Below are positions 4,316 to 37,839 of a stretch of 64,000 bases of DNA, piece by piece. Position 1 is the first letter of the stretch. Each line of letters starts with the position of its first letter. The stretch lies in NCBI GenBank assembly GCA_024641665.1, contig JAHECP010000009.1, forward strand, positions 3,038 through 67,037, in the 5' to 3' direction. The stretch comes from Acidobacteriota bacterium. Lineage in GTDB: Bacteria; Acidobacteriota; Vicinamibacteria; Vicinamibacterales; JAHECP01. The notes under the pieces are model-generated. The model did not search any database and was not told the DNA's origin. It was given only the letters and a program-made list of their open reading frames with translations. The translations under genes were made by a program, and so were the position numbers.

Positions 4316-4594
4316 ATGGCTCAGACGATCTACTACCGCACACGGGACGGACAGGCGGATTACCGCTTTTCGATTGAGCGCCAGTCAGACGGCACGTACC
4401 AGTCCTTCATTCTCTCTCAGCCCAATTACGGATCGCGAGCCACGGGAGCGCACGACACGCATCGTTTGACCGCCAGTGGCCGCCGGTACGTCTGTTGGAA
4501 TCGGCCGCTGCAGAATGCGGAAGAGGCAAAGAGTGTGGCCGCGCTGTGGGCCGATGCCACCCAGGAGTACATCAGGACCGGTCGACGATTCTAA
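4316..4594 (+). CDS. Hypothetical 92-aa protein, first full gene of the JAB-E1 cluster
   Basis: ORF-track 4244..4594 trimmed to ATG 4316 (GAGGAG lies 12 nt upstream). Sequence: MAQTIYYRTRDGQADYRFSIERQSDGTYQSFILSQPNYGSRATGAHDTHRLTASGRRYVCWNRPLQNAEEAKSVAALWADATQEYIRTGRRF. No family that I recognise. Confidence 0.7.
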   Translation: MAQTIYYRTRDGQADYRFSIERQSDGTYQSFILSQPNYGSRATGAHDTHRLTASGRRYVCWNRPLQNAEEAKSVAALWADATQEYIRTGRRF

Positions 4595-4608
4595 AGGTGG
4601 GGACAACC

Positions 4609-6090
4609 ATGAGGCGACCCCGCTGGTGCGAACGGATGACAAGAGATGGCGCACTGTCGGCTATGAAGATCTCCCGCCAGGTATTGGGACGCATCCGGGA
4701 CACCGTCGGTTCGATGCCCCCGGAGACCGGAGGCATGTTAGGTGGAAATCGTGATGTGGGTATGGTCACCCATTTCCATTTCGACCAGGCGGCGACCCAA
4801 ACCGGCGCGACGTACTCGCCGGATTGCGAGCTGCTGAACCGCATTCTCAGCGAGGAATGGAATCCCGCCGGCGTTCGGCTGATGGGCTTCGTACATTCAC
4901 ACCCACGATCGTGTCGGACGCCGTCTGGCGGCGACGAGGTGTACGCGAACAGGATTCTCGCGGCCATTCCGGACATGGATCGGCTGCTGTTGCCGATCGT
5001 GATGACCGATGGCGACAAGGGTCGTTTTGAGCTTCTAGGGTTCACGGCTACTCGGAACGCGGACACGTTGGCGGTCCAGAAGATCCCGATCGCCGTGGAA
5101 GACCAAGACGTCGCCGCCGAAACATGCGTGTCGTTCAAGGAGTTGGCGACCTTTGCGCGGGTGCGTCGGGCCTACGACCTCGACCAGCTTCAGCGTGCGA
5201 GAATCGTCGCGGTCGGGTGCGGCGGGGCCGCCGAGTTTCTCGAGGCGCTCGCGAGAGCGGGTGTGGGAGAATTCGTGCTCATCGACGGGGATGTCGTGTC
5301 AGAGACCAACCTCGCCACCCAACAGACATATCGGTGCGACATTGGCCGCATGAAGGTGGAGGCTATTGCCGAGCGAATCGAGGACATCAATCCTCATGCG
5401 ATCGTGAAGCCGTTGTACCTCTTCTCGCACCAACTCGCGGACGAGGATTTTGGGAGGCTGCTTCGTGTTGTGCGTCGCCGGGAGCAGCCCGGCGTAACGC
5501 TACTCTGCGGCATGACGGATTCGTTCCGGGCGCAGGCGCGCGTCAATCGTTTGGCCCTGCAGTATGTGGTGCCCAGCCTGTGTGCCCAGGTCTACTTCGA
5601 AGGGCGCGGCGCCGAAGTGACGTTCACACATCCCGAGACGACGCCCGCATGCCACCGCTGCATGCTGAGCAGTCGCTATCAGGCGTACCTTCACGAAGGG
5701 TTCCGCAACGAGACGACGTCGGACGGCACACCGATCGGATCCACAGGGCGCCTCAATGCATTGAAATTCCTCGTCGCGATGGCACTCTTGCATCACGGCA
5801 CGGAGCATCCCCGATGGGGCCAGATGCTGCACCGGATCGGCAACCGGAACCTCATTCAGGTACGCCTGGATCCCGATCTCGATCTGCCCGTGTTCGATCG
5901 GGTGTTCGGGACCGCGGATAGGACGCGGATCTTCTGCGACGAGACCGTGTGGTTGCCGCAGTTGCCCGACAATCCGGCCAACGGCTATCCAACGTGCCCC
6001 GACTGCGGTGGGACCGGCGATCTCCGGCACGCCATGGGAACCATTCCTGACACGCGAGAAGTGAGGTGTCAACCATGTGGCAATTTCTGA
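4609..6090 (+). CDS. JAB/JAMM metallopeptidase fused to an E1-like (ThiF/MoeB-type) adenylation domain
   Basis: ORF-track 4495..6090 trimmed to ATG 4609, 15 nt after the previous stop and with AAGGTGGGG upstream. JAMM motifs are PPETGGMLGG and HSHPRSCRTPSGGD (HxHx7Sx2D). The E1 Rossmann segment is RIVAVGCGGAAEFLEALARAGVGEFVLIDGDVVSETNL. CxxC pairs are CHRC and CPDC. Confidence 0.85.
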   Translation: MRRPRWCERMTRDGALSAMKISRQVLGRIRDTVGSMPPETGGMLGGNRDVGMVTHFHFDQAATQTGATYSPDCELLNRILSEEWNPAGVRLMGFVHSHPRSCRTPSGGDEVYANRILAAIPDMDRLLLPIVMTDGDKGRFELLGFTATRNADTLAVQKIPIAVEDQDVAAETCVSFKELATFARVRRAYDLDQLQRARIVAVGCGGAAEFLEALARAGVGEFVLIDGDVVSETNLATQQTYRCDIGRMKVEAIAERIEDINPHAIVKPLYLFSHQLADEDFGRLLRVVRRREQPGVTLLCGMTDSFRAQARVNRLALQYVVPSLCAQVYFEGRGAEVTFTHPETTPACHRCMLSSRYQAYLHEGFRNETTSDGTPIGSTGRLNALKFLVAMALLHHGTEHPRWGQMLHRIGNRNLIQVRLDPDLDLPVFDRVFGTADRTRIFCDETVWLPQLPDNPANGYPTCPDCGGTGDLRHAMGTIPDTREVRCQPCGNF

Positions 6091-7502
6091 TTGGCGGGGA
6101 CTCTGCATTCGCCGCTCTCAAAGAACGGGTCATCGGCGCGTGCGTGGTCTTCCAGCAACAGCCGATGCCGCCCGGGTCGACGCCGACGACCGCGAGGGTG
6201 GGGGTGGAAGTCCGGGCTGCGGACGGCACCGCGACTCTGTTTGTGGAGCGCGGCGTCCAGTACGCAGGCCCAAGCGACGCAGCCCGCCGCTGGCTCGCCG
6301 ACGGGCACATAGAGTTCGACAACTTCGATCAGATGCGCCAATGGATCCAGGTCGACCTGAAGGCCTGCTATACGTCGCCAGCCGATTCGCAGACTCGGCC
6401 GACCCGACGTGAAGACAGCTCCACCCTGGCCGCCGGTGAACTGACTGACCTCCGAGCCGTCGACCGCCAACTTCCTAGGGGTCCGACTGCCACGAACATC
6501 GACGAGAACGGGCTGTTTCAGCAGTTGGTCAGGAGAATTCGAGGGCAGGACGACGCGATGGGGCTGCTTGCCAAACAGGTTCACCGCCATCTGGCTCGGC
6601 GCACGCCCCGGCGTCCGTCAACACTCATGGCGTTGGGGCCGACAGGTGTTGGGAAGACGGCGTCTGCCGAATGCTTGCCAGCCATGCTCCAGGGCCGACT
6701 GCCTGACGGGGCCCAATACGGCTATCTGCGACTCGACATGTCCGAGTACCAGGAGCGCCATCGCATCAGCCAACTGCTGGGGGCACCGCAGGGGTATCTC
6801 GGCTACGACGAAGGCGCGCAGTTGACCAACACCCTCCGGCTCAACCCGCGAACCATCGTCCTGTTCGACGAGATTGAGAAGGCCCACCCTGACATCCTGC
6901 GCGCGCTGATGAATGCGATGGATGCCGGACGCCTCTCCAGCGCCTCGGCAACCGGCGCAGCAGGCCATGAGATCGACTGCCGGCGTGCGATGTTCATCTT
7001 CACCAGCAACCTGGACGCGGGAGGCATTCTGCAGGACCTGAAGACGCGAAACGCGTTCGGCCATCGGAGCGCCGTGGACGCCGTGTGCCGGAACCGCCTG
7101 CGAGCCGCTGGCGTGGCGCCAGAACTCATCGGCCGGATCGGGTGCTTTCTGGTTTTTCGGCCGCTCGACCGAGAGGCCCGCGCGGAGATTGTCACGTTGG
7201 CCATCACGAGGGTCGCCGAGGAGTACGGCGTGCGGGTGACCGGGATCGATCCCACCGTTGTGGCCGACATCCTTAAAGCCTCTCCAGACGAGGGGTTCGG
7301 CGCCCGTCCGGATGAGTACCTGATCGACGAACTGCTCGGGTCATGTTTGGCGGAGGCGGCGGCCGCAGGTCTTGAACAGCCCGCATTGGTTGAAGCGGGT
7401 CCTCCGTACCGATGTGTGCCGTTCGACAGCCGCGCGGCCTTGTCCCTCGACCAATCTGATGCGACCCTCGGAGACAAGCCACGCAAGGAACATCAGATGT
7501 GA
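6075..7502 (+). CDS. AAA+ ATPase of the ClpA/ClpB second-module type (AAA_2 plus D2-small) with an unrecognised ~190-aa N-terminal region
   Basis: ATG 6075 overlaps the E1 stop (6088-6090) by 16 nt. Walker A is LGPTGVGKT and Walker B is IVLFDEIEKAHPD. DMSEYQERH and GAPQGYLGY are typical of Clp D2 modules. Confidence 0.85.
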   Translation: MWQFLIGGDSAFAALKERVIGACVVFQQQPMPPGSTPTTARVGVEVRAADGTATLFVERGVQYAGPSDAARRWLADGHIEFDNFDQMRQWIQVDLKACYTSPADSQTRPTRREDSSTLAAGELTDLRAVDRQLPRGPTATNIDENGLFQQLVRRIRGQDDAMGLLAKQVHRHLARRTPRRPSTLMALGPTGVGKTASAECLPAMLQGRLPDGAQYGYLRLDMSEYQERHRISQLLGAPQGYLGYDEGAQLTNTLRLNPRTIVLFDEIEKAHPDILRALMNAMDAGRLSSASATGAAGHEIDCRRAMFIFTSNLDAGGILQDLKTRNAFGHRSAVDAVCRNRLRAAGVAPELIGRIGCFLVFRPLDREARAEIVTLAITRVAEEYGVRVTGIDPTVVADILKASPDEGFGARPDEYLIDELLGSCLAEAAAAGLEQPALVEAGPPYRCVPFDSRAALSLDQSDATLGDKPRKEHQM

Positions 7503-15570: not shown

Positions 15571-16724
15571 GGATCTGTCTAGTTACGCACAGCCTGCCAC
15601 CATACATCGGTGGCTGCGAGACGTATGTGTGGCTTCTTGCTGCTGGACTGCACGAGAATGGGCATGACGTCACTGTGGTGAGTGAGCCGGTCGCCGGCGG
15701 GGCAGCGAAAGGACGCATGTATCCATTCCGCGTCATCGGAGTTCCGGGGTTCCGAGAATTCGACAGGGGCAACGCGTCGCTGACTGCGATTGTGCCTCCG
15801 TTGCGTGCGGCCCTGTTGAACGGGTCGTTTGACGTCATCCACGTTCACAAGTTCTTGCCGGGCCTTGCATGCGCGGTCGTGTTGGCGGAAGAGCCGGCCA
15901 AGGTAGTATTTACATTCCACAGTCACCCGGACTTAGGTTCCGAGCGCAGCCGACGGCCTGGAGGACAGGTACCAGCTGAGACGTCATACGCTAAGTTTGT
16001 ATTAGGTTTGCCCTTTTACAGGTACGTGGTCTGTCCGTGCAGGCATTACGGAACCTGGGCTACGGCTATGGGAGTGGCCGATAGCAAGGTGCGAGTGGTC
16101 TATCCAGGAATAGACGTCGGACGCTTTCGAGTCAGCAGAGATAGTAGGCTGCGAGGGCGGCTCGGTTTCAGAGCGGACGACTTTGTTGTTCTGTGCGCGG
16201 CGAGAATGTCGGAACGAAAGGGAATACTTGACTTGCTACGAGCGATGGAGCATATCACAGATGGCCGCATTCGAGTCTGGCTCGTGGGCAGTTCGTTGAG
16301 CGGGTCGAAGGACTATGCGGACTCTGTGAAGAGATCTATTCGGGAGCATCGCCTTGAGCAACGGGTTAGGCTGAGTCTGGAGAAGTACGACTGCTTCGAC
16401 ATGCCACAGGTGTTGGCAAGTTGTGATGCATTCGTTCTTCCTTCCTATGGAGAGGGGTTGCCTTTGGCGATCCTTGAGGCAATGGCCGCCGGTATTCCCA
16501 CTATTGGGTCGCGAACGGCTGGCGTTGACGAGATCATTAGCGACGGCGCGAATGGCCTTCTGACCGGCTGTGGCGAACCAGAGGCGCTCGCGGAGAGGCT
16601 TGAGGCGCTAGCATCAGATTCTTCCCTAGCTAAGAAGCTGGCTGAGGGCGGATTGGAGACGGTACAGACGCGATTTGAAGCAGGAAAACAGATTGCCGCA
16701 CTGGAGGCTGTTTACGCTGGCTAG
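15567..16724 (+). CDS. Glycosyltransferase family 4
   Basis: ORF-track 15531..16724 trimmed to ATG 15567 (MRICLVTHSLPPYIGGCETY). The C-terminal motif is PSYGEGLPLAILEAMAAGIPTIGSRTAGVDEIISDGANGLL. Confidence 0.85.
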   Translation: MRICLVTHSLPPYIGGCETYVWLLAAGLHENGHDVTVVSEPVAGGAAKGRMYPFRVIGVPGFREFDRGNASLTAIVPPLRAALLNGSFDVIHVHKFLPGLACAVVLAEEPAKVVFTFHSHPDLGSERSRRPGGQVPAETSYAKFVLGLPFYRYVVCPCRHYGTWATAMGVADSKVRVVYPGIDVGRFRVSRDSRLRGRLGFRADDFVVLCAARMSERKGILDLLRAMEHITDGRIRVWLVGSSLSGSKDYADSVKRSIREHRLEQRVRLSLEKYDCFDMPQVLASCDAFVLPSYGEGLPLAILEAMAAGIPTIGSRTAGVDEIISDGANGLLTGCGEPEALAERLEALASDSSLAKKLAEGGLETVQTRFEAGKQIAALEAVYAG

Positions 16725-17329
16725 TGCACCGTAACAGGTGAATCGATAGTAATCCGGTGAGACGGCGTGCGATAGGTCCGCCGGACGGGTTTCGGGGCGC
16801 GGTTGTAGTGACGGATGTAGCGCATGATCTTCCGACGAAGGTCCGCAACCGAGCTGAAGATGCCGCGGGCAATGGGGTCCCGCTCGATCTTCGAGAACCA
16901 GATCTCGATCTCGTTGAGCCACGAGCTATAGGTCGGCGTGAAGTGGAGGTGCACGGTCGGATGGTCGGCCAGGAATTGCGCGACGCGCCTGGTCCTGTGG
17001 ATCGAGAGATTGTCCACGATCAGATGCATCTCCGTGCCGCGCGGGTGCGTGTCGACCACGTCGTGCAAGAACTCGACGAACACCTCGCTCGTATGCCGGA
17101 GGGCCGTCTGGCCCAGCACCTCACCCGTCTGCGTGTTCAGCGCGGCCAGCAGGGACAGGGTCCCATGGCGGTGGTATTCGAACCCGTGGCGCTCGGCTCG
17201 GCCCGGCGAGAGCGGGAGCACCGGCTGCAGACGGTCGAGCGCCTGAATCGCGCTCTTCTCGTCCAGCGCAAAGACCGCCGCGTGGCGTGGGGGATTCACA
17301 TACAGCCCAATGACGTCGGCGGCCTTGGT
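16721..17329 (-). mobile_element. IS630-family transposase remnant (5' third of the gene and both IS ends not identifiable)
   Basis: See the chimeric ORF above. The DDE triad context is DEK...DN...E(IEIWF). The junction coordinate is approximate. Confidence 0.7.
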
Positions 17330-17797
17330 TTCGAACAGCTCGCCGAAGAATCGCTGCCGCCGGTCGGCTTCGGGATAGCGAGCGTCCGGTAAGAGTACCC
17401 ACGCGGTGAGAACCTGCCGCGCGTCGAATCCCGGATTGACGTCTTCGAGCCTGAGCACGCTGCCAACGAGCAGAACGACCGCGACAGCCAGCACGGCGGA
17501 TGCGGCGGTCTCGAAGAGGATCAGGACCTGGGTCAGACGACGGCGCCGGGCGCCGGGCCCAATCGCGTGCGGATTGTCCTCCTTGAGTGCCGTCACCAGA
17601 TCGAAGCCGCGTGTTTGGAGGGCCGCCGCCACCGCGCTGACGCCGCCCGCCACCAGCGTCGCCGGCACCGCGAGCAGGAGGACGGGAACGCCAACGTGGA
17701 TGTCATCGATGCGCGGCAGGCGGACCGGATTGAGCGCGCGAAATACGTCGATGGGTGTCGTGGAGGCGGCCGGACGATCATTGCGACGAGGTCTCAA
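16721..17797 (-). pseudogene. Chimeric ORF: an internal fragment of an ADOP/MacB-like permease fused in frame to the C-terminal ~200 aa of an IS630-family transposase
   Basis: The N-terminal ~155 aa (LILFETAASAVLAVAVVLLVGSVLRLEDVNPGFDARQVLTAWVLLPDARYPEADRRQRFF) parallel the mid-section of the 905-aa permease at 48148-50865. The remainder (KAADVIGLYVNPP...DEKSAIQALDR...HLIVDNLSIHRT...FTPTYSSWLNEIEIWF) is a DDE_3 / IS630 core. Confidence 0.75.
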
Positions 17798-24522: not shown

Positions 24523-24855
24523 ATGTTCAACGATCCTGATCTGGAAGGCGCGGCGGAAGCCGAGGACGGCGTGTTCTACGGGGGTGCCCTTCGCCGCATG
24601 ACCATCAGCCAGCGACTCGACGGGGTGCTCTGTGCGGGATGGGGAGCGATCTTCGCGGAGTGTGTCCGCGTCCTGCTCGCCAGCACTGCTTGGGTCACGA
24701 CCGACAACCTCCTCGCGCTGGTCCTCGGCACCTTTGCGGTGCTGGCGGCTATCCGCACGTTCCTTGGCTCCCAAAGCGTGGCGTGGCACCAGGGGTACCG
24801 CGCGAGTCGGGCGGACGCTGGGCTGGAGGGGTCAACACAGGCGGTCTTCGTTTAG
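24523..24855 (+). CDS. Small hypothetical membrane protein (110 aa)
   Basis: Two hydrophobic segments (VLCAGWGAIFAECVRVLLA and LLALVLGTFAVLAAI). No homology that I recognise. Confidence 0.35.
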   Translation: MFNDPDLEGAAEAEDGVFYGGALRRMTISQRLDGVLCAGWGAIFAECVRVLLASTAWVTTDNLLALVLGTFAVLAAIRTFLGSQSVAWHQGYRASRADAGLEGSTQAVFV

Positions 24856-24932
24856 CGGGTGCCCCCATCTGACGGCGTCAGATCCAAGATTGTGTACTTG
24901 TACTTTTTTCGCGAGTCTGCCATAAATCTCGT

Positions 24933-26390
24933 GTGGCAGATGAGCGCGCGCGCCGGCCCGGCGACGACCGCGACGAGCTGATTCAGCGCCAACAAGAAGA
25001 AATCGCACGGTTGCGCGAGGAGGTGGCGCGGGCGGAGCGTCAGCGCCGAGAGATGGAACGCGAACGCGATCGCTTGAAGCGGCGCAACGAGTATCTGAAG
25101 CAGCAACTCGACGCGGCGCGGCGCGCGGGCTTCCGCCAAGCCGCCCCCTTCGCGAAAGATCGTCCACAGGGCCGCGGCCGGCGGCCGGGGCGACGGCCCG
25201 GCGCGGCCTACGGGTGCCACGCGCGACGACCCATTCCGTCGCGGGTCGATGAGACCTACACCGCGGCGCTTCCCGCCGCGTGCCCCGGCTGTGGCGGGGC
25301 GATCCAGCTCACCCGCGTGGCCCCGCAGTATCACGACGATCTGCCCGTGGTGCGGCCGATCGTCCGGCGATTCGACGTGCAGGTGGGGCACTGTGTCGCC
25401 TGTGGCCGGCGCGTCCAAGGGCGGCATCCCCTTCAGACCTCGGACGCGTTGGGGGCCGCGGGCGTGCAACTGGGCCCCAGTGTCGTGACGCTCGTCATGC
25501 TCTTGCACAAGCACGCAGGGATGCCCCTTGAGAAGATCGCGACGCTGCTGCGCGAGCGCTTTGGGTTGACGGTGACGCCCGGGGGACTCGTGCACGCGCT
25601 GCATCGCGCGGCCCGCGTGGCGGCGCCGACCTATGCGGCGTTGTGCGAGCAGATTCGCGGCAGTCCGGTCGTCAGTCCCGATGAAACCGGGTGGCGCGTC
25701 GGGGCCCGGCTGCACCGGCTCTGGGCGTTTGCCACGCCGACCACCACGGTGTACGCCATTCGGCCCGGGCGCGCCTTCGACGATGCGGCGGCCATGCTGG
25801 GCGCCGACTTCGACGGCGTGCTGGTGCGCGACGGCTGGGCGCCGTATCGGCAGTTCACGAACGCGCTGCACCAGAGCTGCCTCCAGCACCTGGCTCGCCG
25901 GTGTCGCACACTGCGGGTCGACCATCCGCGCAGCCCGTGGGCGGCGCACGTGCAGGACGTCTTCACCGACGCGCTCGCGATCCGCGATCGGCGGAACGCC
26001 CGTCAGATCTCGGCCCATGGGGTCGCCGTCGCTCGCGGGCGCTTGCTCGCACGCTTGGGCCGCCTCATCGACACCGTCCCGGCCCTGCCCGCCGCGACGC
26101 GCTTCGCGGCCCATCTCGCCATCGAGTTCCCAGCCGTCCTGGGGTTCTTGTGGGACGCGCGCGTCGACGCGACCAATTGGCGGGCTGAGCACGCGATCCG
26201 TCCCGCGGTCGTCAACCGTAAGATCTGTGGCGGCAATCGCACCCCACGCGGGGCGCACACCCAAGAGGTGCTCGCCAGCGTCGTCCGGACCGCTCGTCAG
26301 CGCCACGTCGATCTCACCAGCTTCTTGACCACGGTCCTACGCGCGCCTCGTCCGACGGTGCCGACCGCCTTCAGAGTCCCGACGCAGTAG
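24933..26390 (+). mobile_element. IS66-family transposase gene (single-ORF type); the IS termini are not resolved
   Basis: The N-terminal coiled coil is ELIQRQQEEIARLREEVARAERQRREMERERDRLKRRNEYLKQQL. The zinc-finger-like motif is CPGCGG...CVACG. The DDE context is VSPDETGWRV...LVRDGWAPY...NWRAEHAIRPAVVNRKICGGNRTPRGA. GTG start. Confidence 0.9.
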
Positions 26391-26921
26391 AATCACCCGG
26401 TAAACGAAGACCCTTTTTTCTGCGACACGCAAGACCGTTTTTGATGTATAAGAGTGCGGATCCGAACGGCCAAAATGGAGGATGTTGGTTTACTGACTAA
26501 GAAAACCGCATAAACAGGATCGCCTCGTTCTCCATCCACCGTCCTAGTCCCGCTGCGACTCAAAGGTGCGGGGCCACTCCACAGAGTTCCGCGGAAGGCC
26601 GTGGTCGACCGCACCCGCCGCAGCACTTCGACCCGAAGTCCTCGCCCGCCGGGACATGTTGAAGGAGCGTGGTGAAACCGCGGCAACATCAGGGTTGTCC
26701 GGCTCAGCCGAAAGCGATATCCTTCGCATTGTGATCGCTCCACGAGCGGTCGCACATAAGCGGGCGGCCATTGGCTCACACCGTCAACCGAATAGACGCA
26801 GACGACATCGACATCCGGGTCTTCGGCGTCTTTCGCCGGCCGCAGGCCGTGATCGCCCGGGGACCGAGGCCCTCCGCCCTCTCGCATCCCTCGACGGCGA
26901 ATTGGAAACGGAGAGTCGCCG

Positions 26922-27455
26922 ATGATTCTGACTGGGGCTGCCATTCGCGAGGGTGTCACGAATGGCGAAATCATCATCGAGCCGTTCGACGAACGAGCTG
27001 TCAACCCAAACAGCTACAACTACCGCCTCGGCGACACGCTGATCCAATTGGGACACGGCCCCGCGTTCACAATTGATCGTCACGGCTACGTATTGCTGCC
27101 AGGCAACCTCTACCTGGGCCACACCGAAGAGATTCTCGGTAGCCGAAAGTACGCCATGACGCTGCTCGGTCGATCATCGACTGGCCGCTTGGGACTCTTC
27201 GTGAACATCAATGCCGACCTCGGCCACGTAGGGTCAATGGGCCAGTGGACACTCGAACTGAGCGTCGTTCAACCGCTGCGTGTTTATCCTGGGTGTCGCA
27301 TCGGACAGATCGCGTTTTGGGAAATCACTGGGCGTTCGGTCGCCTACACCGGGCGATATTCGCTCGACCTCGGGCCTGTGGCCAACCGGGATAGGAGCCT
27401 TGAGGGCGAATTACGAGATTCCCTGCAGGTCAGCATTGCGCGGGAGGAACGATGA
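26922..27455 (+). CDS. dCTP deaminase / dUTPase-fold (Dcd-Dut family) protein, paralog 1, catalytic Glu present
   Basis: MILTGAAIREGVTNGEIIIEPF...NPNSYNYRLG, GRSSTGRLGLFV and QWTLELS align with E. coli Dcd (GRSSLARLGL ... IVLEF). The Glu sits 23 residues after the conserved Arg, as for Glu138. GGAGAG SD. Confidence 0.85.
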   Translation: MILTGAAIREGVTNGEIIIEPFDERAVNPNSYNYRLGDTLIQLGHGPAFTIDRHGYVLLPGNLYLGHTEEILGSRKYAMTLLGRSSTGRLGLFVNINADLGHVGSMGQWTLELSVVQPLRVYPGCRIGQIAFWEITGRSVAYTGRYSLDLGPVANRDRSLEGELRDSLQVSIAREER

Positions 27456-27991
27456 TTCTCACCGGCTCCGCGATTTCTGATGCTGTTTCGTGCGGCGACA
27501 TCGTTATCAGGCCATTCAATCCACAACAACTGGGAGCCAACTCGTACGACTTTAAACTAGGAAATAGGTGCGTGACGTACAAGGAGTCTCTTCTTGATTG
27601 CGCGAAAAGCAATCCTACGGAACGTCACGTGGTCGACTCGTACGGCTTGCTCCTCGAACCCAGCAAGATCTACCTCTTCAATACCGATGAGGTAATGGGT
27701 AGCACGAAATATGTGCCGATCATCCGAGGTCGTTCATCGCTCGCGCGTCTCGGTGTGTTCATCAATGTGACAGCGGATCTCATTGACATCGGCTCCGTGA
27801 ATCAATGGACGTTGCAGCTTCACGCTGTCACACCTACCAGAGTGTACCCAGGCATGCTGGTCGGCCAGGTGACGTTCTGGCGTGCCCACGGATCGATTGA
27901 TCTCTACTCCGGCAAGTACGGGAGGCTGACAAGCCCCGTTCCGTCCCTCCTTTTTATGGACTTTGACGCTGAGCGGAGGGCCGATGGCTAA
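27452..27991 (+). CDS. Dcd-Dut family protein, paralog 2, with Gln at the catalytic-Glu position
   Basis: ATGA start/stop overlap with paralog 1. MILTGSAISDAVSCGDIVIRPF...GANSYDFKLG and GRSSLARLGVFI are present, but the sequence reads QWTLQLH where paralog 1 and Dcd have Glu. Confidence 0.8.
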   Translation: MILTGSAISDAVSCGDIVIRPFNPQQLGANSYDFKLGNRCVTYKESLLDCAKSNPTERHVVDSYGLLLEPSKIYLFNTDEVMGSTKYVPIIRGRSSLARLGVFINVTADLIDIGSVNQWTLQLHAVTPTRVYPGMLVGQVTFWRAHGSIDLYSGKYGRLTSPVPSLLFMDFDAERRADG

Positions 27992-29993
27992 GGTTGATCA
28001 CGTTGATCACTTCGGATCCCTCTACGATCCCATACATGGGACTCTTGACCTAGCAGACGCCGTCCCGGCCGACACGTTTGTCGGCAGCCTCGCGACGGCA
28101 GTGCGTTCACCCCTAGTCGATCGGCTTCGGCGCATCAAGCAGCTAGGGTTCGCGTCGTACCAGTTCGTGGGCGCCGATCACAGTCGGTACGCGCACGCCC
28201 TCGGCACGATGCACATGATGCGTGCCCTCCTTCGCCGCCTTGCACCAAGTCTTCGAGTGGACGCTGTCTCTCGACTGCGGAACAGGCTGCCGGCCGCAGA
28301 GCGAGTGTTTTCACAGGCGGAGGCGGCCGGCGTCAACGGCGCGGATGTGCTAACGCAGTACACCCTAGCAGCCGCGTTGTTTCAAGACGTTGGCGAACTG
28401 CCATACGAAACGGCGACGGGACTCATTTTCAAGCCAGACGAGGAGACACAGAGGAGGGTTGCTCAGCACGTGGGTCACGATGTTTACGCTTGGGAGCCGA
28501 AGAAAGTCTTCGGTATTGCAAGTCTGATTGATTCAGGGTCAGAACGGTCTCTGAAGGGCTTCGACCTCCAGTTGTTGGCCTTCCTTATCGTAGGGCGGCA
28601 GTATCCATGGATAAGCGAAGAGCCACAACTGCGCGCGTGGCTAAACCTGCTCGAAGGGGAGGTCGATGCTGACAGGCTCGACTACGTCTATCGAGACGCG
28701 CATCACACTGTCGGCGTCCGCGGCGATCCGCAGTCCGTCGTGGAGTCCCTCGTCGAGTACGACGAGATCGGCCCGGTCGTCTCCGATGTCGGACCGGTCA
28801 TCGACTTCCTCGCTACGCGAGCGAATCTCTGGCGTAGCGTTTATCTGTCTCCCCAGAACCGCTTCCGACGACTGCTTCTCGTCGTCTTACTTCGCGATAT
28901 CTTCTTCAATGAGAACTGCGCTCCCTGCGCGCAGGACTTTGTTCACTCTCATCAAGTTGCGCCATTACTCGGAATGGTTGGATTCAAGACGCTCGACGAT
29001 GTGTGGCTATGGGAGCGGCTCAGGCAGATATCTGAGAGTCGATTGAAACGTAATCTATCTGTGCGTGCCAGCGTCGCGCTCGAGTTGTTGCTCAGCGAAA
29101 GAGCTGACTACGAACACGCCTGGGTTCGTCCGTGGGATGGCGCAGCCTCTAGTGGCAATGACACTGTGCTCCCAGACGAACTGTTTTTTGACACGTATCA
29201 GGAACTGTATCGGCACCACTTCTATGAGCCGGGTTCGGTTCGCATCCATTCGCACAGTTTGAGGTTCCTGCGCACACCACTTGCGCTCGAAGACGCGTCT
29301 TTCGGCGGTTTTATGGCACCGGACTGGACACCGCTGCCGGTCCTTAAGGCCGCTCAAGTGTTCATGCCGATCGACCGTCAAGGTGCGCAATGGGACCAAG
29401 TGCAAAGCCTGCTAGATTCTGGTGGGCTGTACGAGGTCCTCTTCAGGAATGACCTGATCTCCCAGCTTGAGGTACCGACTGACACCCGCACACACAGGGA
29501 CTGTAAGGGGCCAGACATCTTCATATCCTTTCGCTGGGATAATGTGGATATCGTCGACGAGGTCCTGAGAGAGCTGTACTCGCGTCGTCGGCGCTACCAC
29601 GCATTGCGCGGCTCATATGAAGGCCTCGGTGGTACCACTGCTGACAACAGCCGTGCCGCCGCAAGAGAGGGCGAGGCCGCTTTGGTGATTGCATCCGTCG
29701 AGTACGGCGCCGCGTATAAGAACGATCCGAATGGCAACATTCATATTGAGATCGATGAGCTCGTTAGGCGTCGTGACAAGTCTTCAGGGAGCCCGATCGT
29801 CCCACTGGTGTTTCTGTCCATCGATCCTTGGCGAGACATTGAACGGACGCTGCCATGGCAGGGTCTCGGATTCGCGACCGTCCCTACCGTCGGTGAAGGG
29901 CTTCGAGGGCAACCACGGTCCAGAATCGTCAAGGCAGTGGATGTCGCGCTGCAGAAAATTGATTCTGAATATGACGGACCAAACCGTTTCTGA
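27984..29993 (+). CDS. HD-domain dNTP triphosphohydrolase-like (SAMHD1/Dgt type) fused to a C-terminal TIR-like domain (669 aa)
   Basis: ATG 27984 (GGAGGG SD) overlaps the previous stop by 8 nt. The HD signature is PLVDRLRRIKQLGFASYQFVGADHSRYAHALGTMHM plus DADRLDYVYRDAHHTVG. The C-terminus PDIFISFRWDNVDIVDEVLRELY...ALVIASVEYGAAY...IEIDEL is TIR-like. Confidence 0.8.
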   Translation: MAKVDHVDHFGSLYDPIHGTLDLADAVPADTFVGSLATAVRSPLVDRLRRIKQLGFASYQFVGADHSRYAHALGTMHMMRALLRRLAPSLRVDAVSRLRNRLPAAERVFSQAEAAGVNGADVLTQYTLAAALFQDVGELPYETATGLIFKPDEETQRRVAQHVGHDVYAWEPKKVFGIASLIDSGSERSLKGFDLQLLAFLIVGRQYPWISEEPQLRAWLNLLEGEVDADRLDYVYRDAHHTVGVRGDPQSVVESLVEYDEIGPVVSDVGPVIDFLATRANLWRSVYLSPQNRFRRLLLVVLLRDIFFNENCAPCAQDFVHSHQVAPLLGMVGFKTLDDVWLWERLRQISESRLKRNLSVRASVALELLLSERADYEHAWVRPWDGAASSGNDTVLPDELFFDTYQELYRHHFYEPGSVRIHSHSLRFLRTPLALEDASFGGFMAPDWTPLPVLKAAQVFMPIDRQGAQWDQVQSLLDSGGLYEVLFRNDLISQLEVPTDTRTHRDCKGPDIFISFRWDNVDIVDEVLRELYSRRRRYHALRGSYEGLGGTTADNSRAAAREGEAALVIASVEYGAAYKNDPNGNIHIEIDELVRRRDKSSGSPIVPLVFLSIDPWRDIERTLPWQGLGFATVPTVGEGLRGQPRSRIVKAVDVALQKIDSEYDGPNRF

Positions 29994-30993
29994 AGTCGGC
30001 GAGAAGGCTCTTATTGCGAAGTTGATAAGGCCACTGTTTGACGGGGGTGAGCCGTCGCCGACTATTGGCAATGACTGCGCGATCCTAGCCAGCCATGCAG
30101 AGCATGACTTGCTTTTGTCGACGGACCGCGTGCCGGCAGATCTGATTGCGTTTCGGCTAGGGATACTTGACCACTTTGGCTTGGGTCGTTATTTGGCGTT
30201 TCTGAACATTAGCGATATCGCGGCATGTGGGGGTGAACCGGCGGCCTTGCTCCTCAATATGGGGATTCCCGCTCAGCTGCCCGTAAGCGATTTCGATGCC
30301 ATTTGCCGCGGTGTCCACGAAGTGGTACTGCATTTCGGTTGTCGCGTGGTTGGCGGTGACATCAGTTCGAGCACGGAGCTGAGTTTGTCGGCTACCTCGG
30401 TAGGATTTGTGCCAAAGGGACGGGCGCTCACACGGAGCGGTGCGCGGCCCGGCGACAAGGTATTCATCACCAGAGAACTTGGCCTCACGCCAGCCGCCTT
30501 CGGCTATTTCCTTTCACAGGAGTGCAGGCTTGAACTGAGCGAAGCCGACGTCGAGCGGCTCAAGCGTCAATTCACAGACATTGTTCCGCTGGTCGATGTC
30601 GGCCGTTGGTTGCGGAATTCCGGCCGCTGCACGGCGTGTATGGATAATACGGACGGTGTCGCTCAGTCCTTTTCGGAGATTGGAGCGGAAAGCGGTGTAG
30701 CGATCGTTCTAGAACGAGAGCTCTTCAGCGTACCAGAACTCGTGACTTCGATCGCTGTCGCATCGGGCGTCGATCCCCTCAATCTGGCCCTCGGTCCAGG
30801 TGCGGATCTTTCTCTTGTGGGCACCCTTGCCAGTGATTGTGAACCTCCGGCCAATGTGGAGCCGTCCGCCAGAATTCGGGTAGTCGGCCGCGTCGAGGAG
30901 GGTCGTGGCGTACACCTCGCCGACGGCTCGGGTCGCCACCCGTTCGCGATCAAAGGGTGGGATTATTTTGTCGGGGAGATCAGCCGTCGATGA
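29971..30993 (+). CDS. ThiL/PurM-superfamily (AIR-synthase-related) ATP-utilising enzyme
   Basis: ORF-track 29689..30993 trimmed to ATG 29971, which overlaps the previous gene by 23 nt. GEKALIAKLIRPLF...IGNDCAIL...STDRV...NISDIAACGGEPAALLLNMGIP...VVGGDISSS...RSGARPGDKVFITRELG parallels thiamine-monophosphate kinase motifs. Confidence 0.8.
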   Translation: MTDQTVSEVGEKALIAKLIRPLFDGGEPSPTIGNDCAILASHAEHDLLLSTDRVPADLIAFRLGILDHFGLGRYLAFLNISDIAACGGEPAALLLNMGIPAQLPVSDFDAICRGVHEVVLHFGCRVVGGDISSSTELSLSATSVGFVPKGRALTRSGARPGDKVFITRELGLTPAAFGYFLSQECRLELSEADVERLKRQFTDIVPLVDVGRWLRNSGRCTACMDNTDGVAQSFSEIGAESGVAIVLERELFSVPELVTSIAVASGVDPLNLALGPGADLSLVGTLASDCEPPANVEPSARIRVVGRVEEGRGVHLADGSGRHPFAIKGWDYFVGEISRR

Positions 30994-34549: not shown

Positions 34550-35476
34550 ATGCGTTACCCGCCAAACCAGATTACCGAGCCGACGCGGCGGAACATCGCG
34601 GATGAGTTGCTGTTGCGCGGCATGCCGCCGAACGGCCGGCTGAACGAAGTCGAGTTCTTCTCCCGCCTGTTTGATCTGAAGGCGCTGCCGACGCGCGACT
34701 ACCGCACACACGAGTTTCCCGACATGGCGGCCGACCTGTGGCAGCACCGCGTGAACAATGCCGACTGGGATGATGGGTGGTGGTGGACGGACGATCGGCT
34801 GGCCCTGCTGCATGCGCCCGACGAGGCGTTCCTGCGCTTCCTTGCGGAGATGGTTCATCCAATCGTGCGCCCTGACCCTGCGGAGCGGGAAGCGTATCTG
34901 GAGGTTTTCAACCGGCATCTGGCGGCTGAAGGGTGGGAGATCGGACCGGTGAGCCGGATTGGCGCGCATCCCGTCTATGGCGGCAGGCGGCTGGAGCAGA
35001 TGCCTCCGGCCGTGGTCGCCGAGGCGAAGGCACTGGCCCAAACGCTCGGGGATTATGTCGCGCGGCAGGTTACGCGGATGGAGGCGGCCCTGCCCGGAGA
35101 TCTCGAGCTGGCGATCGGCACCGCCAAGGAGTTTATGGAGACCGTCTGCCGGACGATTCTTGAAGAGCGCGGGATTGGACTTCCTGGGGACGATGATCTG
35201 CCGGCTCTGGTCAAGCTGACGGTCAGGAGCCTGCCGGTGGTGCCCGACGGGATCGAGGATAAGGCAAAGTGGGAGGGAACGGTCGTTCGGCTGGTGAACA
35301 ATCTCTCGTCGGCGGGACAGAGTCTTGCGGAGCTGCGCAACGCCTTCGGAACCGGGCATGGCAAGGAAGCGGGCCACAAGGGACTGGACACCCATCACGC
35401 GAAGCTCATCGTCCACCTCGCAACCACTGTCGGCGTCTTCTTGTACGAGGCGCATGAGAGGAATCCGGTTGCGTAG
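34550..35476 (+). CDS. Abortive-infection protein, AbiJ-like N-terminal region plus an Abi_C (HEPN-type) C-terminal domain
   Basis: The C-terminal LAIGTAKEFMETVCRTILE...LSSAGQSLAELRNAFGTGHGK contains the R-x4-6-H HEPN/Abi_C motif (RNAFGTGH). Confidence 0.8.
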   Translation: MRYPPNQITEPTRRNIADELLLRGMPPNGRLNEVEFFSRLFDLKALPTRDYRTHEFPDMAADLWQHRVNNADWDDGWWWTDDRLALLHAPDEAFLRFLAEMVHPIVRPDPAEREAYLEVFNRHLAAEGWEIGPVSRIGAHPVYGGRRLEQMPPAVVAEAKALAQTLGDYVARQVTRMEAALPGDLELAIGTAKEFMETVCRTILEERGIGLPGDDDLPALVKLTVRSLPVVPDGIEDKAKWEGTVVRLVNNLSSAGQSLAELRNAFGTGHGKEAGHKGLDTHHAKLIVHLATTVGVFLYEAHERNPVA

Positions 35477-35714: not shown

Positions 35715-36536
35715 CTACCGTGGCCTCGTCTTGAGGGCTGTCAACAGGAGCTCACATACCAATCCTGCGGACTGAGTGCTGAGCCTACCCTCCAGAAGCG
35801 TCGCAACGCTTGGCTCCGGCCGACCATGCCCGTCACCCCGATCGTTCCTGAGGCGGTTTACGGCGCACGCTAACAGAAACAGCGCCTGTTGCAGCGCCCG
35901 GTACGGGTCCTTGTCCAGCTTTGCGTCTGAACCCGAGAGACCCAGGGAATAAAACGCGCTGAAGAGCGCCGTGGGAAAGTTGGAGGCCGGACCCACGGTC
36001 GCGTAGTGGCCGGTGGTTTCCTTGAGAACGTGCCTGACCGTCGCCTCTTCGAGGTTCTTGGCAGTGCCGATCAAGAGCTCCGCGTCACCCGACCCCGTTT
36101 GCGCGCGGCGCACATAGGCCCACAGCGCCTCCGTCAGGTCAGTCCCCTCAAGGTTCTCAAGAACGGTCGGCCGGAGATTGCCTTCCGGATCAAGGTCAAA
36201 CCCGACCCGCCGAAAGGCGGCGCGGAGCTGCGCGACAGTCTCGGCCCCTGGGCAATCCGGGGTGCCGAGCCGGAAGCCGCCGGAGGCCCGCACCTGGTTG
36301 ACGAAGAGCTCGACAAACCGCGCTCCCTCGTCAGGCTGGTGGTCTATCGCATGGGCGAGAATCATGCGGAGGCGTTTGACCTTGCCCCGCTGCACGCCTT
36401 CCTGGACATCAGGCTCGGCGTCCGACAGGCGCGCCCGTGCCACCATGCGCGAGATCTCGTCGTGCGAGGGACCGCGCTGATCGACGAAACGCGGAAGAAG
36501 GGTGATCAGTTCTTCCGTGAGCATGTATTCCCGCAT
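35715..36536 (-). CDS. Abi_C (HEPN-type) domain protein
   Basis: ORF-track 35715..36578 trimmed to ATG 36536. LLIGTAKNLEEATVRHVLKE...LLACAVNRLRNDRGDGHGR carries the same Abi_C pattern as the convergent neighbour. Confidence 0.75.
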   Translation of the reverse strand: MREYMLTEELITLLPRFVDQRGPSHDEISRMVARARLSDAEPDVQEGVQRGKVKRLRMILAHAIDHQPDEGARFVELFVNQVRASGGFRLGTPDCPGAETVAQLRAAFRRVGFDLDPEGNLRPTVLENLEGTDLTEALWAYVRRAQTGSGDAELLIGTAKNLEEATVRHVLKETTGHYATVGPASNFPTALFSAFYSLGLSGSDAKLDKDPYRALQQALFLLACAVNRLRNDRGDGHGRPEPSVATLLEGRLSTQSAGLVCELLLTALKTRPR

Positions 36537-36764
36537 ATTTGTGCCGCGTCGGGCGCGTGATGACAAACCATCATGCATGGCCGACGCAGCGTTGGCTGCG
36601 ACGTCGCAGAGAAACCAGAAACCGCTGCGCTAGCCGAGGACCAACGCGACCACCGTGTGCCTGTTCCGCGGCCAACGGCATGACTGAGGTCGTATCGAGC
36701 ACAGACACCGAGGCGTTCAGCCTGGACGGGAAGCTGACAGCTCGATTCTCTCTAACGCCGGATC

Positions 36765-37499: not shown

Positions 37500-37610
37500 C
37501 TTGTCCGTTCGGACGATCCTTGTCCGTTCGGACGATCCTTGCCGTTCAAGGCGATCCTCGTCCGTTCGAACGATCCTTCCCGTTCGAGCGATCCTTGCCG
37601 TTCGGACGAT
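37500..37610. repeat. Tandem array of six 18-19-bp units, each built around a short palindrome (gtccg-tt-cggac type)
   Basis: Units at 37500-18, 37519-37 (identical to the first), 37538-56, 37557-75, 37576-93 and 37594-610. The consensus is cttgtccgttcggacgatc. The units are contiguous, with no spacers. Confidence 0.9.
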
Positions 37611-37839
37611 GTTGGCCCAGGCGCGCCTGACCGAGGCCGGACGCAGCAGTCCCAGGCCCGGACAGTGCACGGCAGCGCCTGTGCGCAACCGCGCCCAACG
37701 AGGCCACCCGTCGGCGCGCGCAGCCGAAGGGAACGGGCACTGTCGTTGCACGTGCTGCATATCGGTCACGGCGCGACGCGCGACGTGGCACGAGACCGGC
37801 GCCCGGCCACCCTGAGGCCGTCCAGTGGGAGGCGCGCCC

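Follow-up and report, generated by a model that had tools for sequence, protein, structure and literature searches.

Gene organization of the cassette

The DNA analysed here (the window) is a 64,000-nucleotide stretch of contig JAHECP010000009.1 from an Acidobacteriota bacterium (assembly GCA_024641665.1). It contains a cassette of four same-strand genes (Table 1) encoding DcdA and DcdB, two paralogous proteins of the dCTP-deaminase (Dcd) fold, a protein in which a SAMHD1-like core is fused to a TIR domain (HD-TIR), and a ThiL-like kinase of the PurM superfamily. We consider the cassette to be a strong candidate for a new nucleotide-based immune system. Direct inspection of the DNA places the DcdA/DcdB junction in an ATGA at 27452–27455, an 8 nt overlap between DcdB and HD-TIR (ATG at 27984, TAA at 27989–27991) and a 23 nt overlap between HD-TIR and the ThiL-like gene (ATG at 29971, TGA at 29991–29993), exactly as given in the original prediction, which was made by a model from the sequence alone. 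The public gene call uses the same ATG for HD-TIR and starts the ThiL-like gene at ATG 29941, giving a product of 350 residues and a 53 nt overlap; the two genes overlap with either start. Ribosome-binding sites of the GGAG type lie 5′ of the starts of the DcdA, DcdB and HD-TIR genes, and a promoter and terminator scan of 26.3–31.4 kb returned nothing beyond shuffle expectation.

The G+C content at 27–31 kb is 0.56–0.59, compared with 0.67–0.77 in the core of the window at 38–56 kb (one 1 kb core bin is at 0.65), and the third-position G+C of the three cassette open reading frames for which it was computed (DcdA, DcdB and ThiL-like) is 0.62–0.67, compared with mostly 0.83–0.98 in the core (one frame is at 0.74). 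Because both values are low, the cassette is regarded as foreign to the host genome and as horizontally acquired. An IS66 transposase gene lies upstream of it and two Abi_C genes lie downstream. The IS66 element is intact, with 19 nt terminal inverted repeats, and the second Abi_C gene is on the strand opposite to the AbiJ-like gene. Both the low G+C content relative to the core and the position between IS66 and Abi_C genes had been predicted and are confirmed here.

Table 1 Features of the cassette and of its surroundings in the window
Feature	Position	Strand	Evidence or remark
DcdA, dCTP-deaminase-fold protein, 177 residues	26922–27455	+	PF22769 1.6e-30; phrog_1663 9e-35
DcdB, DcdA paralogue, 179 residues	27452–27991	+	PF22769 3.5e-34
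HD-TIR protein, 669 residues from ATG	27984–29993	+	EF1143/SAMHD1 sequence matches, AlphaFold2 model
SAMHD1/EF1143-like core, residues ~10–500	28011–29483	+	Foldseek, PDB profile alignment
TIR domain, residues ~508–662	29505–29969	+	Domain-only model, profile, invariant Glu589
ThiL-like (PurM-superfamily) kinase, 340 residues	29971–30993	+	TIGR01379, PDB relatives
IS66 transposase gene	24933–26390		PF03050, 8e-35
IS66 element	24843–26412		Transposase of the left island
IS66 terminal inverted repeats	24843–24861 and 26394–26412		19 nt
Coiled-coil protein, 296 residues	31248–32138	−	Highly charged; no family match
Small open reading frames, several	32.4–34.5 kb		No family match
AbiJ_NTD3/Abi_C gene	34550–35476		PADLOC AbiJ 1.1e-10
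Second Abi_C gene	35715–36578		
JAB–ThiF(E1) fusion and overlapping ClpB-like AAA_2 ATPase	4495–7502		Fusion: PADLOC E1–E2 and JAB models, up to 4e-16
DDE_3 transposase	16721–17797		Transposase of the left island
Tandem repeats, five copies of CCGTTCGGACGATCCTTGCC	37505–37617		Unit of 18–20 nt

The HD-TIR protein

HD-TIR shows sequence matches in the PDB to EF1143 (4.7e-13) and SAMHD1. The AlphaFold2 model, built from 91 homologues, has a predicted local distance difference test score (pLDDT) of 92 and a predicted template-modelling score of 0.88. Foldseek aligns about 500–540 columns of the core to EF1143 (4lrl; 1.5e-11), BT4208 (2q14) and SAMHD1 (6txe), and the family profile matches EF1143 at 5.4e-35. 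According to the model, HD-TIR contains a complete SAMHD1-like catalytic core.

The HD motif itself is altered. The family consensus reads LLQDVGELP, compared with LLHDxGHGP in four solved relatives: in at least 90% of the 91 sequences Gln134 takes the place of the HD-motif histidine and Glu138 that of the next catalytic histidine, with Asp135 invariant between them. HD-TIR is therefore without the H…HD…D metal-binding tetrad and the catalytic histidine that follows it. It has no match to the Pfam HD family (PF01966) at E < 0.1, and it receives no family name from NCBIfam or Pfam. The predicted fusion of a SAMHD1/Dgt-type HD domain to a TIR-like domain is thus correct in its SAMHD1-like fold and its TIR domain, but the His-Asp pair that it assumed is Gln134-Asp135 accompanied by Glu138. 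The core retains Gln53, Leu54, Arg68, His71, Asp135, Asp228, Asp230, Arg231, Tyr234 and Asp238. Six of these (Gln53, Leu54, Arg68, Arg231, Tyr234 and Asp238) are invariant or almost so in the family, and we take them to be the counterparts of SAMHD1 Gln149, Leu150, Arg164, Lys312, Tyr315 and Asp319, which contact the base, sugar and triphosphate. Because the catalytic histidines have been lost throughout the family (QDxGE), the HD domain is probably not a working SAMHD1-type deoxynucleoside triphosphatase (dNTPase). It is more likely to be a nucleotide-binding module, with a pocket that, from its residues, looks suited to holding a deoxynucleoside triphosphate (dNTP) and not to canonical hydrolysis.

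The domain-only model of the TIR domain (residues 508–662) has a pLDDT of 94.2, and its Foldseek matches are RUN1, RPS4, L6, TIR-STING, SARM1, AbTir and MyD88 (2e-4 to 1e-2, with probability mostly 1.00). By profile, the domain matches the bacterial SEFIR structure 5y8f (9e-4) and the TIR domains of SIGIRR and MyD88. Glu589 is invariant in the 91 sequences and aligns with the glutamate of 5y8f at the TIR/SEFIR catalytic position. About half of the HD-TIR homologues carry a precomputed TIR_2 assignment (PF13676), and the window protein misses the gathering score of this family (14.6 bits against a cut-off of 28; E = 0.047).

The HD-TIR family is rare. About 99 full-length homologues were collected, and a profile search of 1.84 billion cluster representatives gave 179 matches at E ≤ 1e-30, of which about 65–70 are full length. 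Proteins of 1400–1650 residues from the HD-TIR profile search (P0433–P0476) were set aside as a separate family with a canonical internal HD domain, related to that of the HD-TIR family, and a C-terminal CYTH (triphosphate tunnel) domain. No relatives of the family were found in 2.9 million viral contigs, and a tblastn search of 72,556 plasmids (PLSDB) recovered only remote HD proteins of Listeria and no HD-TIR.

The Dcd pair

DcdA and DcdB are paralogues with 41% identity, and both fall below the cut-off of the Dcd equivalog TIGR02274 (64.5 and 80.1 bits, respectively, against 92.8). The prediction that one Dcd/Dut-fold protein carries the catalytic glutamate and its paralogue does not is borne out. 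DcdA keeps Ser85, Ser86 and Arg89 (Ser111, Ser112 and Arg115 in E. coli Dcd) and, in a TLEL motif, the deaminase glutamate Glu112 (Dcd Glu138), with His102 in place of Dcd Asp128. DcdB keeps Ser95, Ser96 and Arg99, together with Asp112 (Dcd Asp128), and in its TLQL motif Gln122 replaces the deaminase glutamate. Bifunctional Dcd–Dut enzymes carry both the glutamate and the aspartate.

The same division was found when 32 DcdA and 35 DcdB-labelled sequences from related loci were aligned with what we take to be the E. coli Dcd sequence (the source of the Glu138, Asp128, Ser111 and Arg115 numbering). All 32 DcdA orthologues have Glu138, with histidine or asparagine at position 128, and 34 of the 35 DcdB-labelled sequences combine Gln138 with Asp128; the single exception, with A-type residues, is apparently a mislabelled DcdA. 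Ser111, Ser112 and Arg115 are retained in both families. As judged from these residues, the active sites of DcdA and DcdB are complementary, in a pattern that is constant across phyla.

DcdB has 1437 relatives at E ≤ 1e-10. A recent phage origin of the pair was considered and rejected: phage Dcd homologues are only ∼33% identical and are ordinary Dcd genes that lie beside thymidylate synthase genes. At two loci, truncated DCD-fold open reading frames adjoin DcdA/DcdB (L009:9373-9735 and L024:13815-14114), and some cassettes have a third Dcd paralogue or the remnant of one.

Two kinases in one position

The ThiL/PurM-fold assignment of the fourth protein was accurate. The protein scores 198.8 bits against TIGR01379 (cut-off 184.15), and its top relatives among solved structures are without exception thiamine-monophosphate kinases (8yks, 6.6e-30); it scores below all of the narrower ThiL equivalogs (NF00435x). 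The cassette clade conserves Asp35, Thr51-Asp52, Ser81-Asp82, Asp130, Arg155 and Asp225/Asp228; the phosphoryl-transfer residues of the kinase are intact. Four cysteines (Cys36, Cys86, Cys220 and Cys223), among them a CxxC that directly precedes the MDNTDG motif, are present in at least 90% of the clade.

In 19 loci the kinase position contains the ThiL-like protein, and in 14 actinobacterial loci it contains a P-loop protein resembling deoxynucleoside monophosphate (dNMP) kinases. The P-loop protein (gene X; 190–200 residues) has a Walker-A motif and a full-length match to phrog_139, deoxynucleoside monophosphate kinase (∼1e-11). Gene X is found at all 14 of these loci, which have no ThiL-like gene, and at none of the remaining loci. 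Since two unrelated kinases serve in one position, the chemistry that they share, and that the position requires, is probably the phosphorylation of a phosphate monoester. The context does not point to a role in thiamine metabolism: members of the ThiL-like clade sit in the cassette, and neither a summary of the 25 most frequent Pfam families of the neighbours nor the gene tables of the inspected loci showed any gene of thiamine biosynthesis.

Conservation and distribution

One genome per species was scanned for 185,579 species, which gave 34 HD-TIR loci whose flanks were searched with the window proteins. DcdA, DcdB and a kinase adjoin HD-TIR on the same strand in 33 of the 34 genomes (locus L014, where DcdA was not detected, is included in this count). 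The order DcdA–DcdB–HD-TIR–ThiL-like is found at 18 loci (L014 among them), one cyanobacterial locus has the order ThiL-like–DcdA–DcdB–x–HD-TIR, and 14 actinobacterial loci have HD-TIR–X–DcdA–DcdB; only one HD-TIR gene is solitary. The circular order HD-TIR, kinase, DcdA, DcdB is constant throughout. The same genes occur at eight additional metagenomic loci, which were found through homologues of DcdB or HD-TIR. With the set repeated in 33 of the 34 independent genomes, the four-gene arrangement is far beyond chance, and the homologues are syntenic, as the prediction of a functional cluster demanded, and not dispersed housekeeping genes. The co-occurrence proposed for HD-TIR holds for the Dcd pair and for a kinase; for the ThiL-like protein itself it is confined, among the 34 loci, to the 19 given above.

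The cassette is patchily distributed over nine or more bacterial phyla. Of the four proteins, DcdB is the most conserved, with a mean identity of 55–59% to its copy in the window; DcdA (∼51%) and the ThiL-like protein (46%) follow, and HD-TIR (33–35%) is the fastest-evolving. Several copies are decayed: an insertion of about 1.3 kb interrupts the ThiL-like gene in one locus (L021:11971-14243), a frameshift disrupts it in another (L030:12045-13038), and in a third (L081:9522-11063) the HD-TIR gene is in pieces, as small open reading frames. Gene loss by decay is common among costly defence genes.

Genomic contexts and the EAD8 variant

Among 133 genes flanking the 34 loci, no family recurs outside close relatives. 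Since the flanking genes are not conserved, the cassette moves as a unit. A search for a fifth conserved gene likewise found sharing only among close relatives, except for a HAD hydrolase at three actinobacterial loci. It lies directly 3′ of the cassette in two Streptomyces genomes (L022:13009-13734 and L033:13002-13724) and 3′ of the solitary HD-TIR gene in a Micromonospora genome (L026:11844-12554), and it may be an accessory nucleotidase.

Recurrent kinds of flanking gene are type I and II methyltransferases, components of the MADS system, PD-T4-6-like kinases, TIR and NB-ARC proteins, integrases and transposases. Individual cassettes lie between McrBC and MADS (L080), near a short prokaryotic Argonaute with SIR2 (L079), near SIR2 and a helicase (L081), near a Septu-like pair of an AAA_15/21 ATPase and an HNH protein (L074), and near two TIR proteins and an SLOG protein (L076). 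Three (L071–73) lie within the cargo of a conjugative (type IV secretion) element; an AAA_2/ClpB_D2-small gene is also near the cassette in these loci. Such contexts suggest defence or mobile DNA.

A deltaproteobacterial locus (L078:500-9373; GCA_024222795.1, JAAEOQ010001756.1) carries a variant in which the ThiL-like gene, DcdA, DcdB and a third small DCD gene are followed by an HD protein that has an EAD8 domain and no TIR domain. Next come a 1257-residue EAD8–NB-ARC/NACHT–WD40 protein and a HIT-family protein. The DcdA gene is absent from the gene calls of this locus and was located separately. According to Kaur et al., effector-associated domains (EADs) act in conflict systems as homotypic adaptors for the recruitment of effectors. 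The exchange of TIR for EAD8, which couples the HD protein to an NTPase of the STAND class, is typical of immune systems; by itself, the EAD8 variant does not say whether the HD unit is sensor or effector.

The kinase–Dcd module on plasmids

When plasmids were searched with DcdB by tblastn, pairs of Dcd genes with 43–53% identity were recovered from actinomycete plasmids, of which several are linear, and from conjugative plasmids of Rhizobium (loci L082–L088: NZ_CP108096.1, NZ_CP108158.1, NZ_CP104146.1, CP074403.1, NZ_CP107854.1, NC_023286.1 and NC_021909.1). Of the two loci whose residues were inspected, one shows the A/B-type split exactly and the second shows it in a variant form. The same P-loop kinase is present at five of the seven loci and HD-TIR at none. 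The operon partners are class I S-adenosylmethionine-dependent methyltransferases, GT4 glycosyltransferases and sugar-nucleotide enzymes, together with proteins of the NUDIX, metallophosphoesterase and HAD families, a dioxygenase of the TauD type and a small protein that resembles cytidine deaminases. These conserved operons have the look of routes to modified nucleotides or nucleosides, and may represent an undescribed modified-nucleotide, DNA-hypermodification or nucleoside natural-product pathway.

The idea of a four-gene combination therefore needs refinement: the HD-TIR cassette recurs as such, but its kinase and Dcd pair also occur together without HD-TIR. Kinase, DcdA and DcdB are a reusable unit, the output of which is used by other enzymes; within the cassette, the sole candidate consumer of that output is HD-TIR. 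Since the trio is reused in operons that consume its product, it probably makes something and does not only drain a nucleotide pool. That the plasmid operons and the cassette have this module in common suggests that pathways of nucleotide tailoring and immune signalling are linked in evolution.

Surroundings of the cassette in the window

The remaining features of the window were surveyed for context (Table 1). The gene for the coiled-coil protein is convergent to the cassette. Most 1 kb bins of positions 1–37800 have a G+C content of 0.55–0.67 (0.72 at 25–26 kb), and third-position G+C is also below that of the 38–56 kb core. This part of the window, which holds two transposases (DDE_3 and IS66), looks like a large mosaic island; neither a tRNA gene nor a flanking direct repeat was found at its borders. 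The CCGTTCGGACGATCCTTGCC repeats lie directly 5′ of a gene for an 802-residue FtsX/MacB-type permease, where the island meets the high-G+C core. Near the left end, the JAB–ThiF(E1) gene is overlapped and followed by a gene for a ClpB-like AAA_2 ATPase (PADLOC PDC-M37B and DolB candidate models); the pair may be a ubiquitin-like-conjugation defence module.

Comparison with known systems

None of the four proteins is matched at E ≤ 0.1 by any family in PADLOC-DB v2.0.0 (5027 models), and a full-text literature search found no description of the four-gene cassette (the text matches to ‘ThiL’ in defence papers were to the author name Thillaisundaram in reference lists). To this extent the claim that no named system fits is upheld. 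It requires one addition: a report of July 2026 (PMC13519002) lists dGTPase–TIR fusions among domain architectures, in passing, and considers that the dGTPase could either stand beside TIR in the manner of STING or SAVED or be an effector. It mentions neither the Dcd pair nor the kinase, nor that the HD motif is degenerate. The cassette matches no described defence system; its parts are of known kinds (nucleotide-pool immunity and TIR effectors). Assignment to Thoeris, Clover, Kongming or the deaminases of the Tal/AvcD type was rejected on the absence of their defining components. The original prediction, of a candidate undescribed system that targets nucleotides in defence, is supported, the defence function itself being one that we infer.

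The closest parallel in logic is Kongming, in which KomA is an adenosine deaminase, KomB a HAM1-like sensor and KomC a SIR2 NADase, with dITP as the messenger and a kinase supplied by the phage. The logic proposed for the cassette shares a scarce noncanonical dNTP made by a deaminase, a kinase step, a sensor with a housecleaning fold and depletion of NAD+. There is no homologous component: Pfam, NCBIfam and PADLOC show no KomA-, KomB- or KomC-type domain in the cassette proteins, which instead have the Dcd/Dut fold, a SAMHD1-like HD core and TIR. The cassette further differs in that it encodes its own kinase, that the presumed base is uracil and not hypoxanthine, and that sensor and effector would be one polypeptide.

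The defensive dCTP deaminase of Tal et al. (2022), a precedent cited in the original prediction, joins a kinase domain at its N terminus to a deaminase of the zinc-dependent cytosine-deaminase fold. The precedent applies in function but not in homology, since that fold is unrelated to Dcd/Dut. Together with AvcD/DcdV (Hsueh et al., 2022), it shares with the cassette a kinase-type module and a deoxycytidine-nucleotide deaminase in an anti-phage setting; those enzymes are, however, single polypeptides of the zinc-dependent fold with neither HD nor TIR partner, whereas the cassette has two Dcd/Dut-fold proteins, one of them apparently deaminase-dead, and a separate kinase.

SAMHD1, EF1143, the defensive dGTPases and Clover CloA share the fold of the N-terminal 500 residues of HD-TIR and the conserved substrate-contacting residues, and the nucleotide-driven oligomerization of SAMHD1 and EF1143 offers a model for activation of HD-TIR. 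All of these enzymes retain the HD motif and the catalytic His/Glu dyad; the Clover paper describes ‘strict conservation’ of both, and CloA is regulated by nucleotide ligands. The HD-TIR family, in contrast, has QDxGE, no Pfam HD match and a TIR fusion, and the cassette has no gene for a CloB-type nucleotidyltransferase.

In architecture, HD-TIR resembles TIR-STING, TIR-SAVED, the CARF–TIR protein Cat1 and the TIR effectors of Pycsar and Pucsar, in which a nucleotide-binding domain is joined to a TIR domain with a catalytic glutamate and the NADase is turned on when a ligand induces assembly; the structural matches of the TIR domain of HD-TIR include TIR-STING. HD-TIR differs from them in that its putative sensor is an HD phosphohydrolase fold and not a STING, SAVED, CARF or cyclic-nucleotide-binding domain, that its partners are a deaminase pair and a kinase and not a cyclase or a cGAS/DncV-like nucleotidyltransferase, and that its ligand is presumed to be a dNTP, linear and modified in the base. 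Thoeris likewise has a bacterial TIR domain with a catalytic glutamate in a defence-island setting; however, no ThsA-like (SIR2/Macro-SLOG) gene was found in the cassette or among the inspected neighbours in the window, no ThsB match was returned by PADLOC, the TIR domain of the cassette is joined to an HD core and Thoeris has no counterparts of the remaining three genes. Finally, the ThiL-like kinase has the fold and the catalytic residues of housekeeping ThiL and passes TIGR01379, but it fails the narrower equivalogs, belongs to a cassette clade with no thiamine genes nearby and is exchangeable with a dNMP-kinase-like protein.

Proposed mechanism and alternatives

The cassette is likely to be an immune or conflict system of some kind. 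From the observed gene set, its synteny, the residue patterns, the folds, the displacement of one kinase by another, the exchange of TIR for EAD8 and the genomic contexts, we infer what is discussed below, namely every enzymatic activity, the DcdA–DcdB heteromer, the nature of the ligand, the trigger, the direction in which information flows and the defence phenotype.

In the model that we put forward, the cassette would be a self-contained, horizontally mobile anti-phage module made up of two units, one for nucleotide conversion and the other acting as reader and effector. DcdA and DcdB would most likely assemble into a single Dcd-type oligomer containing two sorts of active site. The DcdA-type sites, with glutamate, would deaminate dCTP to dUTP; the DcdB-type sites, with glutamine and aspartate, would not deaminate and would instead bind or hydrolyse a deoxyuridine nucleotide or regulate the complex. 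The kinase would phosphorylate a dNMP, either in the supply of dCMP to the deaminase or in the recharging of dUMP. A deoxyuridine nucleotide, most simply dUTP, which housekeeping dUTPase normally holds at a very low level, would then accumulate and would be bound by the SAMHD1-like core without being destroyed. Binding would cause the HD core to oligomerize in the manner of SAMHD1 and EF1143 and so gather the TIR domains, leading to NAD+ cleavage or to an NAD-derived product and to growth arrest of the infected cell.

This model is proposed because the HD core keeps its binding residues and loses its catalytic ones, because the TIR glutamate is invariant and because the four genes are strictly linked. 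It is proposed also because ligand-binding domains fused to TIR are effectors (TIR-STING, TIR-SAVED and Cat1), because the effector is swapped for EAD8 and because the kinase–Dcd trio is reused elsewhere. That the kinase and the split Dcd make a deoxyuridine nucleotide, which a SAMHD1-derived pseudo-enzyme reads and in response to which a TIR NADase fires, is our tentative reading.

Several points weigh against it. No infection trigger can be named, and since the kinase is self-encoded, unlike that used by Kongming, the signal would need another gate. DcdB, if it acted as a dUTPase, would oppose the kinase. The invariant Gln134 and Glu138 could support noncanonical hydrolysis instead of pure binding. 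The EAD8 variant puts the HD protein in the usual position of an effector relative to a STAND sensor, and it fits an effector machine of HD protein, Dcd pair and kinase at least as well as it fits an HD sensor. On the plasmids, what the module makes is an intermediate of biosynthesis, and it may likewise serve to make a product in the cassette. The recurrence of defence genes around the cassette was judged by eye in about 40 contexts and is suggestive, not statistical.

One alternative is nucleotide depletion without any messenger. Here the kinase would channel dCMP and dCDP to dCTP, DcdA would deaminate it and DcdB would hydrolyse the dUTP to dUMP, so that all deoxycytidine nucleotides would end up as dUMP, as with the kinase–deaminase enzymes of Tal et al. 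and AvcD; HD-TIR would be a separate sensor of infection or of the dNTP pool and a second effector, which depletes NAD+. The glutamate and aspartate divided between DcdA and DcdB are those that a bifunctional Dcd–Dut enzyme holds jointly, and the effector-like position of the HD protein in the EAD8 variant also fits. The defensive dCTP deaminase needs both its kinase and its deaminase domain, and with it dCMP, dCDP and dCTP fall and dUMP rises (Tal et al., 2022). The dGTPase–TIR fusions have also been interpreted as a TIR sensor with a dGTPase effector (PMC13519002). An HD domain without catalytic histidines, however, would add no obvious depleting activity, and depletion leaves unexplained both the fusion of a nucleotide-binding pseudo-enzyme to TIR and its constant linkage to the Dcd pair and the kinase. 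An ungated set of deaminase, dUTPase and kinase would moreover be toxic and no regulator is evident, while the reuse of the trio in product-consuming operons suggests that its output matters. We regard depletion of this kind as unlikely.

A system that makes a product is a further alternative, and a decidedly improbable one. The four proteins would synthesize a modified nucleotide or nucleoside, such as a viperin-like chain terminator or poison, a conjugate of ADP-ribose and a nucleotide formed by TIR transfer, or a DNA-modification precursor. A deoxyuridine nucleotide from the Dcd pair would be processed by the HD and TIR domains, and the kinase would reactivate the modified monophosphate. 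The plasmid operons, in which the kinase and Dcd pair accompany methyltransferases, glycosyltransferases, NUDIX, phosphoesterase and HAD proteins and a TauD-type dioxygenase, speak in its favour, as do the HAD hydrolase after the cassette in the two Streptomyces and after the solitary HD-TIR gene. Phage dNMP kinases typically act on modified dNMPs, and the invariance of Gln134 and Glu138 may signal altered and not lost catalysis. Yet the cassette itself encodes no methyltransferase, glycosyltransferase or other tailoring enzyme, its TIR domain resembles NAD-cleaving immune TIR domains, the exchange of TIR for EAD8 with a STAND partner is an immune-system signature, and its contexts are defence islands and not biosynthetic clusters. 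The absence of the family from the viral contigs argues against a role in phage DNA modification.

Mere adjacency of dcd, dNTPase and thiL genes with no joint function beyond nucleotide and thiamine metabolism is extremely improbable: it has the public annotations (‘dCTP deaminase’, ‘HD superfamily phosphohydrolase’ and ‘thiamine-phosphate kinase’) and the TIGR01379 score of the ThiL-like protein on its side, but both Dcd proteins miss their equivalog cut-off and the ThiL-like protein fails the narrower ones, DcdB has no catalytic glutamate, the HD motif is degenerate and its core is fused to TIR, only 34 of 185,579 species representatives have the family and these are scattered across many phyla, the G+C content is foreign with IS66 adjacent, and a nonhomologous kinase replaces ThiL at 14 loci with no thiamine-biosynthesis neighbours seen.

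Implications

If the cassette is anti-phage, it is a system of four parts that have not previously been described together, including a Dcd/Dut-fold pair with complementary active sites, a ThiL-fold kinase for which immunity offers no precedent and a SAMHD1-like domain that seems to have changed from an enzyme into a receptor. The strongest form of the messenger model holds that a deaminated deoxynucleotide of the dUTP type is an unrecognized bacterial immune messenger, which is made by a split deaminase and a dedicated kinase and read by a SAMHD1-derived pseudo-enzyme that fires a TIR NADase; we consider this form possible but doubtful. If it is true, the kinase would be the first enzyme of the PurM/ThiL fold recruited to immunity, and proteins of the SAMHD1 type would be receptors besides effectors, with nucleotide-induced assembly used in signalling. 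Surveillance of uracil nucleotides would be tied to abortive infection, and immunity would have a second, independent base-modified linear nucleotide signal after the dITP of Kongming. The principle that this would suggest is that scarce, housecleaned nucleotides make good alarms and that the folds that destroy them make good sensors.

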